This document shows positions 9,260-15,696 of a stretch of 64,000 bases of DNA, in pieces. Within the stretch, counting starts at the first letter, position 1. Every line of letters begins with the position of its first letter. Source of the DNA: a bacterium (lineage in GTDB: Bacteria; UBA8248; JACPRG01; G963555815); NCBI GenBank assembly GCA_965218795.1, contig OZ244653.1:4896001-4960000 (forward strand), written 5' to 3'. The notes beneath the pieces were generated by a model, which did no database searches, had not been told where the DNA came from, and saw only the letters and a list, made by a program, of their open reading frames with translations. The position numbers were made by a program, and so were the translations under genes.

Positions 9260-9538
9260 ATGATCGTCCGCTTCCGGCATAAGGGACTCCAGCTTCTCTA
9301 CGAGAAGGGGGACCGGTGGCGGGTGCCGCCAGCATACGTCGCTAAAATCGAGCGTATTCTGGCACGTCTCGATGAGGCGACGGGGCCCACGAACATGGAT
9401 CTGCCGGGCTTCCGGCTGCATCCGTTGAAGGGCGACCTTGCCGGCTACTGGTCGGCCAGCGTGTCCGGCAACTGGCGCATCGTGTTTCGCTTCGAGGGCG
9501 TGCGTGCCAGCGACGTGGACCTGGTCGATTACCACTGA
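9260..9538 (+). CDS. higB: Type II TA toxin, HigB (RelE/ParE superfamily, plasmid-killer type)
   Basis: Motifs [31 protein letters not shown] and a DYH end. Toxin-first order. Confidence 0.93.
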
Positions 9539-9552
9539 AGGAGGACCATGAT

Positions 9553-9840
9553 ATGCCGATGAAGAATCCACCCCATCCGGGCCTGTCCGTCCGTCACGAC
9601 TGCCTGGAGCCGTTGGGGCTCAGCGTGACGGAAGCTGCAAAGAAGCTGGGGGTCAGTCGCAAGCAGTTGTCCGATGTGGTCAATGGCCATTCGGGGATCT
9701 CGCCGGAGATGGCGATTCGCCTTGACAAGGCGTTCGGCGGGGACGCGAACACGTGGTACCGTCTGCAGGCGGCCTACGACCTGGCCCAAGCGATGAAACA
9801 AGCCGACCGGATCAAGGTCGAGCGGTTGTCTTTGATATAG
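9553..9840 (+). CDS. higA: Type II TA antitoxin HigA (XRE HTH)
   Basis: Motifs [33 protein letters not shown] and W.RLQ..YDL. Confidence 0.93.
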
Positions 9841-10082: not shown

Positions 10083-10158
10083 TGGCTCCCCGGGCCGGAC
10101 TCGAACCAGCGACATGGTGGTTAACAGCCACCCGCTCTGCCAACTGAGCTACCGGGGA
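10083..10158 (-). tRNA. tRNA-Asn (GTT)
   Basis: 76-nt cloverleaf: TCCCCGG/CCGGGGA acceptor stem, GCTC/GAGC D-stem, GGTGG-CTGTTAA-CCACC anticodon arm, TTCGAGT T-loop and encoded CCA. Confidence 0.98.
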
Positions 10159-10652: not shown

Positions 10653-10705
10653 CGGGCGCTGGGCGGGCAGACGCCGACTGGCGGTGATGGCGCCGGCGAG
10701 TGGAT

Positions 10706-11746
10706 TTACCCCGTTTCAGTGGACAGTTTATGGCTGTCACCTCCAGCCCTGAGTTGGGCGACAGCCGGTGGACGTAAAGTCTTCCCCAAGATCGGTGGAT
10801 AGGATATCGCTGGAGGGGATATCTTTCCCTTTGGCTCTCCGCTCCAGCAAGCACCGGGCACCCCTCGGGCCGGACGATGAACGTTGCGCACTGCACCCGG
10901 CGTTGCCTTCGCCGCGTCGCGTTCGTAGTCGTTGGGGCTGAGGTAACCCAGGGCGGAGTGCCGGCGGCGTGGGTTGTACCAGCCTTCGATGAATTGGAAG
11001 ATCGCCATGCGCGCCTCGGCCTGGGTACGGAACGAACGCCGGTCGATGAGCTCGCACTCCAGCGTGGCGAAAAAGCTCTCGGCCATGGCGTTGTCATAGC
11101 AGTCGCCGGCCGACCCGGTCGAGGGAAGCACCCCCATCTCCCGGCACCGCTTGCCGAAGGCGAGCGAAGTGTACTGCGTTCCCCGGTCCGAATGATGCAC
11201 GACCCCATAGGGCCGGCGCTGTCCCAGCGCCATGTTGAGCGCCCCGAGCACCAGCTCGGTGCGAAGATGATGGGCCATGCACCACCCTACGATCCGGCGG
11301 CTGAACACGTCGAGCACGATGGCCAGGTACACGAACCCCGCCCAGGTCGGCACGTAGGTGATGTCGGCCACCCAGATTCGGTCCGGCCCATCGGCCTGGA
11401 ACTGGCGTTCGACCCGGTCCGGGACCGCACGATGACTCGGGTCCAGACGCGTGGTGCGCGTGCCCCGGCGCCGGCTCACCCCGGCCAAGCCCGCCTCGCG
11501 CATCAGACGAGCTACCCGTTTGCGGCTCACCCGACGCCCGTTGGCCGTCAACTCGGCATGCATCCGAGGCGCCCCGTAGGTGCCGCCAGATGCCTCGTGG
11601 ATGGCCCGGATCGTGCCCCCCAACGCCTCGTCGTGCTTCGCACGATTGGAACGCCCACGGCTTCGCCACGTGTAGTACCCGCTGGAGGAGACACCCAGCA
11701 CCCGGCACATCGTGGCCACCCGATGACAGGCCTGGTTCGCCTTCAC
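10706..11746 (-). CDS. IS3-family transposase OrfB (DDE integrase core)
   Basis: Motifs TYGAPR, WVADITY, LDVFSRRIVGW, HHSDRGTQY, DNAMAESFF and YNPRRRHSALGYLSP. Confidence 0.93.
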   Translation of the reverse strand: MKANQACHRVATMCRVLGVSSSGYYTWRSRGRSNRAKHDEALGGTIRAIHEASGGTYGAPRMHAELTANGRRVSRKRVARLMREAGLAGVSRRRGTRTTRLDPSHRAVPDRVERQFQADGPDRIWVADITYVPTWAGFVYLAIVLDVFSRRIVGWCMAHHLRTELVLGALNMALGQRRPYGVVHHSDRGTQYTSLAFGKRCREMGVLPSTGSAGDCYDNAMAESFFATLECELIDRRSFRTQAEARMAIFQFIEGWYNPRRRHSALGYLSPNDYERDAAKATPGAVRNVHRPARGVPGACWSGEPKGKISPPAISYPPILGKTLRPPAVAQLRAGGDSHKLSTETG

Positions 11747-11806
11747 GAGCCCGAAGACCTCCCCGGCACCGAGCCGGTCTCCCGTGCGAACCAGACCGCG
11801 GCTTTC

Positions 11807-13172
11807 CTAAGAAACTGCCTCCGCACCCTCCTGCAGAACATACCCCAGAGAAGCGGCCCGTCGGCGAAGATTCTTCACCACACGCTGACGATAACGCTCT
11901 TCATAGTATGAAGCGCCGGGATCCACATACTTCTGCCCATATCGCAGCGTGTTGTATAGCAGGACCGCAATCTTTCGGGCGGTGGCAGTCACCGCCTTGG
12001 CCTTGCCGATCCGCGCCGACAATCGACGATAGAACGCTCCGAGCGCGGTCTCGGTCCTGCCCACCGCCACCGCCGCCAGACGCAGCACCGCAGCGGCCCG
12101 ATTCGACGTACGGCGCGTTCTCGAGGCCAGAACGCGTCCACCGGAGATCTTGTTCGCCGGCGCCAATGCAAGCCACGACGTGAAGTGCTTCGCGCTCGGC
12201 CATCGAGACATATCCGTCCCACATTCGGCGATGATCTTCAGCGCAAGGTAGGGGCCGACTCCGTGAATCTGGGTCAGGTCTACGCCGAGCAACGCATACA
12301 GGGCGCCTCGTACGTCGAAGTTCAATCCGTTGGGCTGACGCGCCTTGTGCCGAGGCGCGGGCAGCGCCGCCGACGGCTCATCGACGCCATCACTGAGGCG
12401 ACCCAGGACCGCCTCGATTTCCTGGTCGCAGCGAGCCACTTGTGCTTGATACACATCGTACAGCTCCAGGGCCTGTCTCAGCGCAAAGACGTGCTCGCGT
12501 TGGTAATGCCCGACAAGCGCTTCACGGATCGTCTCGCGTGAGGATTTACAACGGCTGTCGCGCCATGCCGCGAGTAAGTCGGGGTCGACGACCCCCGACG
12601 CGATCGCCCGAATCATCCGCAGCCCCGTCACCCCCGTGATGTCGGACACAACATGGTGAAGCTGAACATTCATCTGGGTCAGCGCCTTTTGCATGTGTTG
12701 AATGTGCGCCGCTGCATAGTCGCAGGAGGCGCTCGCGCTGTCTCAGGTAAGACCGCAACTCTGCGATCCCGCGAGTGGGGCGAAAACTGGCTCGCAACAA
12801 ACCGTACTGGTGCAGCTGCTGCAGCCACTGCGCATCGTTCACGTCACTCTTGCGTCCCGGAACCGTCTTCACCTCCCGAGCGTTCACCACGATCACTTCC
12901 AATCCATGCTCTTGAAGGATCTCGAACAACGGGATCCAGTAAACGCCCGTGGACTCCATCGCGACCGTCTCGACCCCAGCCTCTTCGAACCAGTCGGCAA
13001 GACGCTGCAGGTCGTTGGTAAAGGTCTTGAAGGTGCGTACGGGCTCGTCAGTACCCTTCGATCCCACCGCGGCCACATGGATTCGCGACCCAATGTCCAC
13101 CCCCGCCGCATTGGGATGGACCACCGTCATGCCTCGGGAAGAACGTTTCGTCCTGCGCTTTGTACTCGCCAT
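11807..13172 (-). pseudogene. IS110 DEDD recombinase, split by a one-base frameshift near 12722
   Basis: DEDD residues in GVDIG, AMESTG and KSDVNDA; C-terminal IHGVG and NKISGG. The sequence CTC CTG C GAC TAT has one extra C between RERLL and DYAAAHIQHMQKAL. Confidence 0.88.
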
Positions 13173-13179
13173 GGGTCCC

Positions 13180-13411
13180 TCTCCTTAATCATGTTGGGAG
13201 ATGTCCGAGAGGCGGGACGGCGGTTCCCATCATTTTCCTAATCGGGCTCGTCGATCGACGGCGCCACAGTCAAGTCCGCAGCAGTCCCTGAACCACGTTT
13301 TTTGCGGGGTCATGATCCTCCAAAAAGCTGACGGTTGCTCCCCCCGGACATCGCACATTCTACGCTGCCCACCAAGTTTCCATTCGTCCAGGAAGACGCC
13401 GTCTTGTCCCG
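13180..13411 (-). ncRNA. Candidate IS110 bridge RNA in the non-coding left end
   Basis: ~240-nt non-coding end. It contains TTAGGAA and GTCCCG, which match the circular donor junction TTAGG-AA-CGGGAC, and CGCAAAAAA and CTGCT, which nearly match the occupied target. RNA boundaries are not defined. Confidence 0.6.
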
Positions 13412-13665
13412 TTTTTTAGGATCTCCCGCTCTTCGCGAAGCTGACGGACCTCTCGACGAAGCCGCCGCAGCTCCTCGAGCTCCGTACTTGTCAGACCGTC
13501 CTCACGACGGCCCTCGTCGCGGTCGGCCTGGCGCACCCAGTTGCGAATCACCGAAGCAGAACACTCGAACTCCCGGGCCAGCTCCCCGGGCGTACGGCCC
13601 GAGCGAACCAACTCGACCATCTGGCGCCGCTACTCCGGCGCGTAGGGCGAATGAGTCTTTCGCAT
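13412..13665 (-). pseudogene. IS3 OrfA (HTH), with an amber stop at codon 12 and interrupted by IS110
   Basis: Translates as MRKTHSPYAPE*RRQMVELVRSGRTPGELAREF...NWVRQAD...EEREILK and continues as KAAVWFARE beyond the IS110. Confidence 0.85.
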
Positions 13666-13748
13666 CTGAACACCTCCTGCGCACACTCTGAAGGTGTCCA
13701 CGAAAACGGGTCAACTCCAGCGTGCCGCGCACGGCGAAGCCGTCGGTG

Positions 13749-15367
13749 TCAGCCGTTGAGAAGATCGTTCGCAACCTGCCGCGCTTCGTCCAGAGTTTCG
13801 ACGATGTGCTCCTCCGGTACGTGCTGCAGGATACCGAGGGTGTGAAGGGTGTTCGCAACGGAGCCCGAGGCGCCCATTACGATGAACCCGATCTGCTCTC
13901 TCGTGGCGACGTCCATGAGCTGCTCTATCACCATGGCAGCGCTGTCGTCGAGATATGTGGCGCCGGAGAAATCAAAGATGACGACCTCGTGGTCCTTGAT
14001 GTCCGCGCTGATCACGCCCACCAGCTTGTAGGAGGATGCGACGGTGAAGCTCCCCTTGAGCGCCACCATGCCGACCCGCGCCGCGTACGGGTCCGCCGTG
14101 GCCATGTCCTCCCGTTCGGAGAAGAACGTCCGGTCCAGCAGTGGCACGGAAACCACGCTGTCGAGTTCCAAACCTTCCAGTTGCCGCGCATGGGCCATTC
14201 CTCCGGCGATCAGCCCGATCGCTACCGCGGTTACCAGATCGACGAACACCGTAAGGCCCAGCGTCATCAGCATGACGAAAAGGTGTTCGCGCCGGATGCG
14301 GTGGACACGGGCGAGAAGACGCCAGTCGATGATGTCCCAGCTGACTTTCATCAGGACGCCGGCGAGAGCGGCAAGAGGGATCGGCTCGACAGACTGGCCG
14401 AGGCCCAGCACCAGCGCCAGCGTAAGGATCGCCCCCAATGCGCCCGATACCCGGGTGAGTCCGCCGGCGCGTATGTTGGTCACGGTACCCACGGTGGCCC
14501 CGGCGCCGGGCAGCCCCCCGAAGAGTCCCGCAACCATGTTTCCGATACCCTGACCGACCAGCTCCCGATCCGGGTTGTGGCGCGTACCGGTCAGCGAATC
14601 GGCTATCAGGGAGGTGAGGAGGCTGTCCACGGAACCGAGCAGGGCGAGAATGAGCGCCGGCTGCACTGCGTGCAACAGGAAGCCGACGGACGGCAGCCCC
14701 AACTGCACGCCCGGCAGGCTGGTCGGCACCTGCCCGATGATCGGCGCATCGTTCAGCCACAGCACGCCCAGCAGCGTGCCGGCCATCAGCGCCGCAAGAG
14801 GAGCCGGCAGGAGTCTCGCCAGCCGACGGGGCCAGAGCACGCCAACCGCGAGAGTAACGGCGGCGATGGCGAAGGCGCTGAAGTTGATGTTGGCCACCGC
14901 CTCGGGCAACGCCCCGGCCGCGCGCCCATGGGTCCGCCCGGCGCGGTGGGCGCTCCGAGGAAGGGCATGGCCTGAATCAGCATGATGATGATGCCGACCC
15001 CGGACATGAATCCGGAGATCACCACGTACGGCGTGTAGACCACGAAGCGGCCGACCCTCGATATGCCCAGGAGCGCCTGCAGCAGACCGGCCAGAACGAC
15101 GATGGTCAGGGCTTCGGTCAGATCGGCCGCGTGCTTGGTGACGATGACCGCCAGAGCGACGGTTATTGGGCCTGTGGGGCCGGATATCTGGGACCGCGTG
15201 CCGCCGAACACCGATGCGAAAAAGCCGACCGCGATCGCACCGTACAGGCCGGCCGCCGGCCCCAGGCCCGACGCCACACCGAAGGCCAGCGAGATCGGCA
15301 GCGCCACCACCATGGAGGTGACGCCGCCGAAGATATCCCCGCGAAGCGTATTGAAGTCGTAGCCCAT
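13749..15367 (-). CDS. SulP/SLC26 family anion transporter with STAS domain (frameshift near 14920)
   Basis: First ORF carries GDIFGG..VVALP.SLAFG, SGPTGP and GFMSG. Second ORF carries ELVGQGIGN, G.LPGAGAT..T and STAS YLDDSA. A one-base shift joins them. Confidence 0.88.
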
Positions 15368-15395
15368 GTGACTATGTCCCGCGCCGGGCGTACAG

Positions 15396-15696
15396 GTGAT
15401 CACTGACGGCTGGATCGGCTATGCCGGTCTGCCGGACCACGACCACGGATATCCGAAGCTCATCGGCGCGATGGCCGCCCACGTGGCGCTGAAATGGACC
15501 CACCGCGCGTTCTCCAATCTCAAGCGCTGGGCCGCTCGGCACCGCGGTACGCCTTCTCCTGTCCACACCGACCGACCCACGCTGTCAGCGGACCTTGCCT
15601 GCGTCCTGAAACCCACTGCCAAGCCCAACTGATCGACCCGATCGTCGGCCCAGACGAGCAATATCCTGGAGCACGGGGGGGGCAAAGGGATACGCC
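15396..15696 (+). mobile_element. IS1595-family (ISXO2-like) transposase remnant with a possible right end
   Basis: Motifs ITDGW.GY.GL and AH..L.W.HR.FSNLKRW. GGGATACGCC at the end resembles a terminal IR. Confidence 0.6.

Follow-up and report, generated by a model that had tools for sequence, protein, structure and literature searches.

The stretch of DNA analysed here, referred to as the window, comprises 64,000 nucleotides (nt) of a bacterial genome (GTDB lineage Bacteria; UBA8248; JACPRG01; G963555815), namely positions 4,896,001 to 4,960,000 of contig OZ244653.1 in assembly GCA_965218795.1. The source genome is a single 5.17-Mb contig with a GC content of 60.5%. Within the window two insertion sequences (ISs) are stacked into one another: an element of the IS110 family lies inside an element of the IS3 family, and it lies there within the run of A's that forms the -1 frameshift site between the two IS3 genes, orfA and orfB. 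Related elements sit at the same kind of position in other genomes and carry, in their non-coding left ends, putative RNA guides that vary together with the sequences they adjoin. Coordinates are positions in the window unless another contig is named, and a slash within a sequence marks a junction.

The nested unit occupies 10701..13719 on the minus strand, as do all of its parts described below. Its limits are the points where homology with other copies in the genome ends, and they are formed by inverted repeats; 1411 base pairs (bp) are the IS3 element's own sequence. The terminal inverted repeats run as TGGAGTTGACCCGTTTTCGTGGACA... from 13719 downward and as ...TGTCCACTGAAACGGGGTAAATCCA ending at 10701, and are written TGGAGTTGACCC...GGGGTAAATCCA in minus-strand reading. 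The 3-bp sequences on either side of this copy differ (CGC versus CTC), that is, the unit stands there without a target duplication. The 5' part of orfA extends from the ATG at 13665 to the A-run (13412..13665), contains an HTH_Tnp_1 domain according to Pfam (13620-13360), and is interrupted early by an in-frame TAG at codon 12 (13632-13630). The left junction is a run of six A's (13412..13417): the IS3 sequence ...GAGCGGGAGATCCT is followed by A6 (13417-13412) and then by CGGGACAAG from 13411, in short GAGATCCT-A6/CGGGAC. From here the IS110 element spans 1606 bp (11806..13411), in the same orientation as orfA of its host. Its extent is defined by four copies with identical ends and its family by Pfam, and it has no terminal inverted repeats. 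The right junction consists of three A's (11803..11805): the element closes with ...GCAGTTTCTTAGG ending at 11806, then come AAA (11805-11803) and GCCGCGGTCTGG, in short TTTCTTAGG/A3-GCCGCGG (TTAGG/A3-GCC). The remainder of the IS3 element (10706..11802) begins with the tail of orfA (...AAVWFARE... in the 0 frame, stop TGA) and continues with orfB in the -1 frame, an open reading frame (ORF) from 11746 to 10706 with the Pfam domains HTH_21, rve and rve_3. Two bases of the A-run are present at both junctions, as an AA core with its left copy at 13413-13412 and its right copy at 11805-11804; the four A's preceding the left copy and the last A at 11803 belong to the slippery run of the IS3 element.

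The transposase gene of the IS110 element (11807..13172) is broken in the window copy into two ORFs, 13172-12546 (DEDD_Tnp_IS110) and 12694-11807 (Transposase_20). Two further copies in the genome, B and D, encode an intact transposase of 454 amino acids (aa). The set of Pfam domains consists of PF01548, a DEDD/RuvC-like N-terminal domain (E 8.1e-21 on the first ORF), and PF02371, Transposase_20 (E 5.9e-14), both of them IS110-family transposase domains; PF01548 is also found on the intact 454-aa protein and, in precomputed annotation, on all 120 relatives listed. The stop codon, TAG at 11809-11807, ends one base before the end of the element. A weak match to the IS621 transposase 8wt6 (E 1.9e-5) covers the region of the catalytic serine, with KISGG opposite YESGSS. 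The assignment of this serine (Ser241) follows the numbering of PMC11208158.

Four copies of the IS110 element are present in the genome, at 99.94-100% identity, and all four share the same two junctions inside IS3 copies (genome BLAST). A query of 100 nt left of the junction yields 23 hits in the genome. Four of these are occupied and two are empty; 13 are IS3 relatives with another site sequence, all of them empty (GGCAAAAGCTACGG seven times, ACAAAAAAGCTACGG twice and four singletons), and the last four end short of the site. Both empty copies, L005 (C1:224475-225489) and L004 (C1:2857450-2858463), read GAGATCCT-A7-GCCGCGGTCTGG. The nine A's of an occupied site (6+3) compared with the seven of an empty one mean that two bases are present twice, which corresponds to a 2-nt AA core. 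Translation of L004 in the 0 frame gives ...EILKKAAVWFARE... up to a stop codon (also given as ...REEREILKKAAVWFARE...stop), and the -1 frame entered after CTA AAA AAA reads KSRGLVRTGDRLGAGEVFGLVRANQACHRVATMCRVLG..., which is OrfB; the insert therefore lies within a canonical A AAA AAA G heptamer. Since the outside flanks of the two empty copies are identical, they belong to a duplicated segment and represent one independent empty site. The preliminary description of this locus, made from the window alone, had placed both junctions in the A-run of the IS3 element and anticipated that removal of the insert together with one AA would restore orfA and an A-AAA-AAA-G slippery site whose -1 frame runs into orfB. 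The junctions indeed read that way on the minus strand, the frames of the empty copy bear out the restored site, and the A7 of the empty copies agrees in length with an AA core. Tabulating the flanks of the other copies revealed none at an unrelated site; four of four lie in IS3.

An empty form of the site is also visible in public sequencing runs, for which the evidence consists of assembled contigs and not of reads. Run X5 has contigs that join 11803 directly to 13412 and so lack exactly 1608 bases, two letters fitting either side. Depth in this run is ~170-790 over the IS3 flanks and ~7 over the insert; the parts of X5 without cover are uninformative. Loose ends of an empty site in contigs of X2 and X3 may stem from the genome's own empty copies, so they do not inform on excision, and no contig with a circle junction was found among the public-run contigs, which as contigs cannot show its absence. 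As a separate observation, each of the four public runs has contigs in which 257 bases of IS3 orfA (window 13434-13692) are missing, at depths of 13.5-86; this form is presumably another deleted IS3 copy.

Where does the element go in other genomes? With the intact transposase as query, relatives were gathered in two sets of 80 loci each, the first from contigs of one genome per species (62-92% transposase identity, many phyla) and the second, as a replication, from metagenome contigs. Their flanks were classified by profile searches seeded from the window and three further loci. Flanks of the IS3 type, with a helix-turn-helix (HTH) ORF followed by an rve ORF, were found at 40 loci of the first set and 54 of the second. 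The IS630 type accounts for 18 and 11 loci, respectively, an IS1380-like type for four and none, mixed flanks for two and none, unclassified flanks for ten and 11, and six and four loci have no flank. Across both sets, 94 of 160 loci have the element at the A-run between orfA and orfB of an IS3-type host, and 29 of 160 have it in an IS630-type host, counts that are inflated by kinship: 13 of the 18 IS630-type loci in the first set come from one metagenome-assembled genome (MAG), and about 18 IS3-type loci in the second are near-identical. Pfam domains of the flanking ORFs agree with these classes, with HTH_Tnp_1 on the left (31/69) and rve plus HTH_21 (20/60) or DDE_3 (11/60) on the right. The right end of the element is almost invariant, GTTTCTTAGG followed by AA, and the left end begins with C after the A-run. 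The usual flanks, ...GAGCG.GA.AT.YT-A6/ on the left and /AA(A/G)GC.GC...TACTTCGC.AAGGA on the right, encode the end of an IS3 OrfA (ERDILKK) and its continuation (AAAYFAKE). When virtual empty sites are built on the assumption of a 2-nt core, the downstream ORF comes to lie in the -1 frame at 19 of 25 IS3-type and 13 of 14 IS630-type sites.

Along the same lines, 546 of 5426 complete Escherichia coli genomes carry a relative with 65% identity (74 of them at a coverage of at least 80%), and relatives are found in 244 plasmid records. In E. coli KFu019 the RefSeq annotation reads, in order, 'transposase, incomplete', 'IS110 family transposase' and 'IS3 family transposase, incomplete'. The junctions are ...GAAATATT-A6/CTGTCC and CTCAGG/AAGGCTACC, the left protein ends in ...ENEILK, and the left flank shares 98-99% identity with elements carrying the RefSeq annotation 'IS3-like element IS911 family transposase, programmed frameshift'. 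Uninterrupted IS911 copies read TATT-A6-GGCTACC in three of the four read. Eight A's in the occupied state (6+2) compared with six in the empty one again indicate a 2-nt AA core, this time in an A AAA AAG motif. The IS911 copy of E. coli BL21 (L199:1516-1540), also annotated 'programmed frameshift', has A5 and with it no canonical A AAA AAG. On a Citrobacter plasmid the insertion follows ...DERDILK/ of yet another IS3-type orfA.

The second class of hosts can be followed within a single genome, G062, a long-read assembly in which A counts may be off by one. An IS630-type family with 303 nt of identical left flank contains occupied copies (L107, L112, L114) that imply A7-CTTC, and empty copies (L108-L110, L113) that read A8-G-CTTC, with an extra G by the run; occupancy follows the match to the guide. 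In a second genome, G061, three of three copies are occupied and no empty IS630 copy was found. Judging from the frames, the IS630 A-run may be a programmed -1 frameshift site as well. Three further copies of the G062 family, L105, L111 and L106, are shortened: in two of them only the first 5 nt of the IS110 element remain, next to a deletion that extends into the right flank, and in the third a deletion lies inside the run. They have the appearance of scarred losses, and A8-G that of a resistant allele. Head-to-tail tandem dimers of relatives were seen in three genomes, at L015:3854, L019:3875 and L065:3860.

The candidate source of this specificity is the non-coding left end of the element (13173..13411, 239 nt), which an alignment of 31-63 relatives characterises as a bridge-RNA-like gene. 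The consensus of 31 left ends folds into two stem-enclosed internal loops, each with an inner hairpin. Its paired positions hold in 97.7% of cells, compared with 88.8% after shuffling and 32-48% with slid partners, and 71 cells show double changes versus 17.8. The first loop, the target-binding loop (13291..13336), has a stem AACCG, an inner hairpin GGAGG..CCCC and a closing stem, and its stems covary. Its 5' strand TCAGCTTTTT (13331-13322) is antisense to the core and right flank, and its 3' strand GCAAAAAAC (13305-13297) is the sense of left flank, core and first element base. The second, the donor-binding loop (13214..13288), has a stem GGGAC/GTCCC and an inner hairpin at 13265-13245; the basal stem shows 9-11 double changes per pair. 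Its 3' strand holds TTAGGAAA (13241-13233), the sense of the right end TTAGG plus the AA core. Further conserved are a TAnnnT box (TAGAAT, 13362-13357) and GGAAAC (13381-13376), an inverted match to GTTTCT at the right end. This subterminal match of 6-7 bp pairs (T/G)AGAAAC, about 31-36 nt inside the left end, with GTTTCT(T)A at the right end. Folding this one sequence alone does not separate the left end from shuffles (z = -0.09); the information lies in the comparative structure only. Rfam returned no bridge-RNA match, just a transfer RNA (tRNA) and a sub-threshold small RNA hit, and Rfam 15 may hold no bridge-RNA family; an exact search of metagenome contigs with 27 nt of the target loop gave no match. 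Two other candidate guides were rejected. GGAGGATC, complementary to the target at 13 of 15 positions, shows no covariation in relatives and forms the inner hairpin of the target loop, and GTCCCG, complementary to the first bases of the element, does not covary either and is the closing stem of the donor loop.

Three guides change together with the DNA they correspond to. On the left, the guide equals the flank in L007 (CAGGGAAA) and L051 (CAAGAAA), and L063 has TGGCAAA against a flank T(T/G)GGCAAA. On the right, AAGTTT goes with AAACTT (the IS630 class), TCGCTT with AAGCGA, AGTGCTT with AAGCACT and GCCTT with AAGGC; right guides of the AAGTTGCCG type accompany a third flank class, and in the metagenome set, too, guide classes follow target classes. 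The donor guide TTAGG changes to TCAGG or ATAGG along with the right end in L039/L062/L066 and L051. Cognate guides and flanks match 614 times in the genome set compared with 535.7 ± 9.0 after shuffling, and 558 times in the metagenome set compared with 495.4 ± 8.2 (0 of 5000 shuffles reach the observed value in either set), where relatedness is not taken into account by the shuffles and a few genomes contribute many of the loci. Mutual information across 52 sequences recovers right-flank positions 4-5 and right-end position 4. The guides also bear on the variant sites of this genome, which contains at least 19 related IS3-type copies with several site sequences, only the A7-GCC variant being occupied: pairing with the left guide takes six A's as far as the core, and the right guide calls for a further A beyond it, so neither the A6 nor the GGCAAAAG variants can serve the two guides together.

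Taken together, these observations very probably reflect an IS110 element of the bridge-RNA type that recombined by way of a 2-nt AA core into the A AAA AAA G heptamer of an IS3 element, and that belongs to a clade whose guides are tuned to the A-runs of ISs. The left end of 239 nt would encode a two-loop RNA. The 3' strand of its first loop (..CAAAAAAC), being the sense of left flank, core and first element base, could pair with the bottom strand, and UUAGGAA(A) in the second loop would represent the sense of the element's right end plus the core. In a very large clade that spans many phyla, such guides would be directed to A-runs at a domain boundary in the transposase genes of other ISs, with the -1 frameshift site of IS3-type elements as the main target and an A7-8 run in IS630-type elements as the second. 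Sites of this kind would suit the element: their nucleotide sequence is conserved, they exist in multiple copies, travel from host to host and do the host no harm. The preliminary description had cast the element as a parasite of IS3 acting at the frameshift motif, and this idea gains from the 94 of 160 loci of relatives, from the A6G motif of IS911 in E. coli and from the covarying bridge-RNA-like guides. It had also taken the insertion to inactivate the IS3 element. As far as can be judged from the sequence, orfA and orfB are moved 1.6 kb apart, so that the OrfAB transposase presumably cannot be made; the nonsense codon in orfA would make this IS3 copy dead anyway. Scarless excision, likewise part of that description, would fit the data.

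Several points weigh against this interpretation. The window copy is itself frameshifted by one extra base near 12722, which is polymorphic (present in contigs of run X1, absent from those of X2, X3 and X5); such a passenger could move only with the help of the two intact copies. A survey of 60 related genomes did not recover the element (two matches of 34-47 nt are at chance level), which suggests a recent arrival; no movement was seen directly, either in the public-run contigs or in these genomes. The proposed RNA is incomplete in two respects: covariation and mutual information across the 52 sequences revealed no guide for the element's left end, and no promoter-like (sigma-70-like) site was found in the left end or in the natural right-end/left-end junctions of dimers. 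The AA core does not account for every count. The dimer junction reads TTAGG-AAA-C..., one A above the prediction for a 2-nt core, with the usual counts at the outer junctions, and the only natural empty IS630 sites found (four, in one MAG) carry the differing A8-G allele. Empty sites could simply never have been occupied, and the scarred deletion derivatives of a relative show that loss is not always scarless. The kinship among loci noted above affects the counts of both sets and the guide shuffles, and flanks are unclassified at 21 of 160 loci. Finally, the modelled pairing at the element's own IS3 site scores 11 of 16 in a naive 8+8 score, while 233 other AA sites score at least 12, and all 41 AAAAAAAGC sites in the genome, two of which are the empty IS3 copies, are unoccupied. 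Pairing alone does not explain the exclusive use of IS3 here: either there have been few insertions ever, or an extra factor contributes, such as the structure of the DNA adjoining frameshift sites. A structure requirement has been argued for ISPpu10 in a preprint.

This last point leads to the explanation that fares best among the alternatives. The association in this genome could be a by-product of one chance insertion, followed by co-amplification of the nested unit through IS3 transposase acting in trans or through homologous recombination, without any site preference. The local history supports part of it. A nonsense codon at orfA codon 12 (TAC>TAG) is common to the IS3 copies A (in the window), B and C, all three with the insert, and D, E and F, of which E and F are empty, have TAC. 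The IS3 flanks of A and B are identical, and a clean 3-bp duplication, CAT/CAT, surrounds the whole nested unit at B; none is present at the window copy, C or D, and the TG...CA repeats are there. Copy D looks like a mosaic: over 203 nt to the left of the junction it equals A, the empty copies having ten differences in that stretch, and further out it resembles the empty copies. The IS110 alleles pair differently, A with C (both with the extra base) and B with D (both intact), which conflicts with the IS3 pairing of A with B. The four copies in this genome are not independent insertions, a further point against reading them as repeated targeting; they probably descend from one or two true insertions, after which the nested unit would have been co-amplified by IS3 transposase in trans or by recombination between IS3 copies. 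That the IS3 site is not the best match to the guides, with 39 AAAAAAAGC sites outside IS3 unoccupied, points in the same direction. The scenario fails for the other genomes: 94 of 160 loci share the same IS3 position, in hosts whose OrfB is only 26-73% identical to that of the window IS3, too diverged to recombine, so that neither recombination nor co-inheritance can account for the common position. Many of these diverged hosts keep uninterrupted OrfB frames, IS911 is split at its A6G in E. coli, and one IS110 lineage occupies several IS families within a single genome. We accept co-amplification as part of the story of the four local copies; as an explanation of the site itself we regard it as improbable.

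Could the clade instead prefer any A-run, owing to low complexity or DNA shape, with IS frameshift sites being no more than the commonest long A-runs in GC-rich genomes? The guide strands are dominated by U5 and A6, the left flanks vary upstream of the run, and several of the 21 unclassified loci lie at A-runs outside recognisable IS genes. This genome, however, contains 339 exact A7 and 1521 exact A6 runs, and only IS3 sites are occupied. Among the 150 loci with usable flanks, 127 lie inside IS transposase genes (94 IS3-type, 29 IS630-type and four IS1380-like, with two mixed loci uncounted), and bases beyond the run covary with the guides in the AAGC, AACTT and AAGTTGCCG classes. E. coli is not GC-rich, yet its relative still sits in IS911. 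A mere taste for A-runs is thus most unlikely. That the insert is an assembly artefact, or that homopolymer errors in the A counts make core and precise site illusory, is barely conceivable: the genome is a single 5.17-Mb contig with an estimated contamination of 6.4%, several relatives come from long-read MAGs with unreliable A-run lengths, and the count fails at the tandem junctions and for one IS630 allele, yet the junctions are identical at four places, contigs of independent public runs span the element and either side of its junctions and include the empty form shorter by 1608 bp, and the same +2 count recurs in complete E. coli genomes (8 versus 6 A's, three of four empty IS911 copies).

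How does the element, read as a bridge-RNA-type IS110 directed to slippery runs, relate to systems already described? Like IS621, it combines a DEDD/RuvC-like N-terminal domain with a Tnp domain that holds a serine (PMC11208160, PMC11208158). It shares with IS621 a long non-coding left end upstream of the gene, corresponding to an RNA with a target loop and a donor loop, a 2-nt core within the pairings and the lack of terminal inverted repeats (PMC11208160). One extra guide base matches the recombinant junction, as in the handshake guides of IS621 (PMC11208160). Its domains, the behaviour of its core and the layout of its RNA place the element in the IS110 family, as a distant relative of IS621, from which it differs in several respects. 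The proteins are only weakly similar, as the E value of 1.9e-5 to 8wt6 indicates, and the core is AA here in place of CT (PMC11208160). Both loops of our element place the strand that pairs with the top strand 5' of the sense strand, opposite to the order in IS621 (PMC11208160), a comparison that assumes the same top-strand convention, namely the direction of the transposase gene. Moreover, the right end lies about 1 nt beyond the stop codon, and the natural target is the coding sequence of another IS, whereas that of IS621 is a repeat of the repetitive extragenic palindromic (REP) type.

The nearest known case is ISEc21, which is of the IS110 type, has its non-coding region upstream and naturally targets a conserved stretch within IS3-family transposase genes (PMC11187229). 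Together with its seekRNA, it shows the principle of RNA-guided parasitism of one IS on another (PMC11187229), so this principle is already known and the slippery-site target is the added part. ISEc21 differs in targeting the DDE codons of IS3, where our element uses the slippery A-run, and in having its top-strand match 3' of the bottom-strand match (PMC11187229). The order found here, with the top-strand complement 5' of the bottom-strand match, is that of the IS1111 type, for example ISEc11, ISPa11, ISKpn4 and IS4321 (Siddiquee et al., PMC11187229). Some members of that type likewise specialise on sequences of other mobile elements, and our element has only a short inverted subterminal match, AGAAAC/GTTTCT. 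IS4321 and IS5075 insert in the terminal repeats of the Tn21 family, and the subterminal repeats of IS1111-type elements are longer. Unlike in the IS1111 subgroup, the non-coding region (239 nt) lies upstream and not downstream, and the stop codon is 1 nt from the right end. ISPpu9 and ISPpu10, also of the IS110 family, resemble the element in their highly site-specific insertion into a multi-copy, host-neutral repeat; their REP target is an extragenic palindrome of the host, in contrast to the functional motif of another transposon used here.

A second, unrelated IS110-like element is present in this genome at L003:1520-2876 (G000 C1:2704319-2705675), inserted in an IS3 element at HHSDR/G, and partial copies at C1:2644824-2645522 and C1:3132424-3132791 have the same start point in two other IS3 copies. 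This position equals the natural target published for ISEc21 (PMC11187229). The IS3 elements of this genome are accordingly hit at two conserved motifs by two IS110-type elements. Both empty IS3 copies carry an internal deletion in orfB (query positions 625-1018) that starts exactly at the site of the second element in copy C, and it may have been left by that element.

Some 540 bp past the right end of the IS3 element, with no clear gene in between, is a tRNA gene (10086-10158, minus strand; Rfam score 64.7 bits). Further along, two small adjacent ORFs of 92 and 95 aa (9260-9840, plus strand) resemble a toxin-antitoxin pair of the HigB/HigA type. Upstream of the left end of the IS3 element, a putative membrane-protein gene (13749-15403, minus strand) appears as two overlapping ORFs, 15403-14786 and 14909-13749, which could result from a frameshift or a sequencing error.

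RNA-guided elements of the IS110 family are under intense study as tools for genome writing. To our knowledge, natural targets have been recognised for few of them: REP repeats, attC sites, transposon ends and, for ISEc21, the DDE codons of IS3. We found no publication on the targeting of slippery sites by IS110 elements, although ISfinder and the supplementary target tables of PMC11187229 and PMC11208160, which were not covered, may list it. The accessible parts of PMC10214660, PMC7285500, 10.1101/2025.10.25.684509, PMC3469429, 10.64898/2026.08.14.744561 and PMC11213020 do not describe it. A translational recoding signal is a target of a different logic, one in which drift is precluded, since it is the nucleotide sequence itself that the ribosome reads, and a frameshift heptamer, the one part of a transposase gene fixed in this way, would be an ideal portable and host-neutral landing pad. 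On balance we lean, by a modest degree, towards a broader view: the guides of a very large IS110 clade, A6-type on the left and U5-type on the right, would home to the slippery runs of at least two unrelated IS families, IS3 and IS630, including the textbook site of IS911 in E. coli, which would make the clade a dedicated hyperparasite of ISs that silences each copy it enters and keeps OrfA, the regulator of IS3, in place. Its RNA, upstream as in the IS110 type but with the guide order of the IS1111 type, would represent an intermediate architecture.

The data suggest that a whole clade lives on a recoding signal, in soil and water bacteria, on rhizobial plasmids and in about a tenth of complete E. 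coli genomes. If this is true, its natural pairs of guide and target, with their mirrored guide order, would offer material for testing how bridge recombinases read their RNAs. It would also provide a rule for annotation: an incomplete transposase, an IS110 transposase and an incomplete IS3 transposase in succession would be one nested unit, whose junction marks the frameshift site of the host element. In addition, one IS would be policing others, which would bear on the control of IS load and on the many IS3 copies that are annotated as split pseudogenes.

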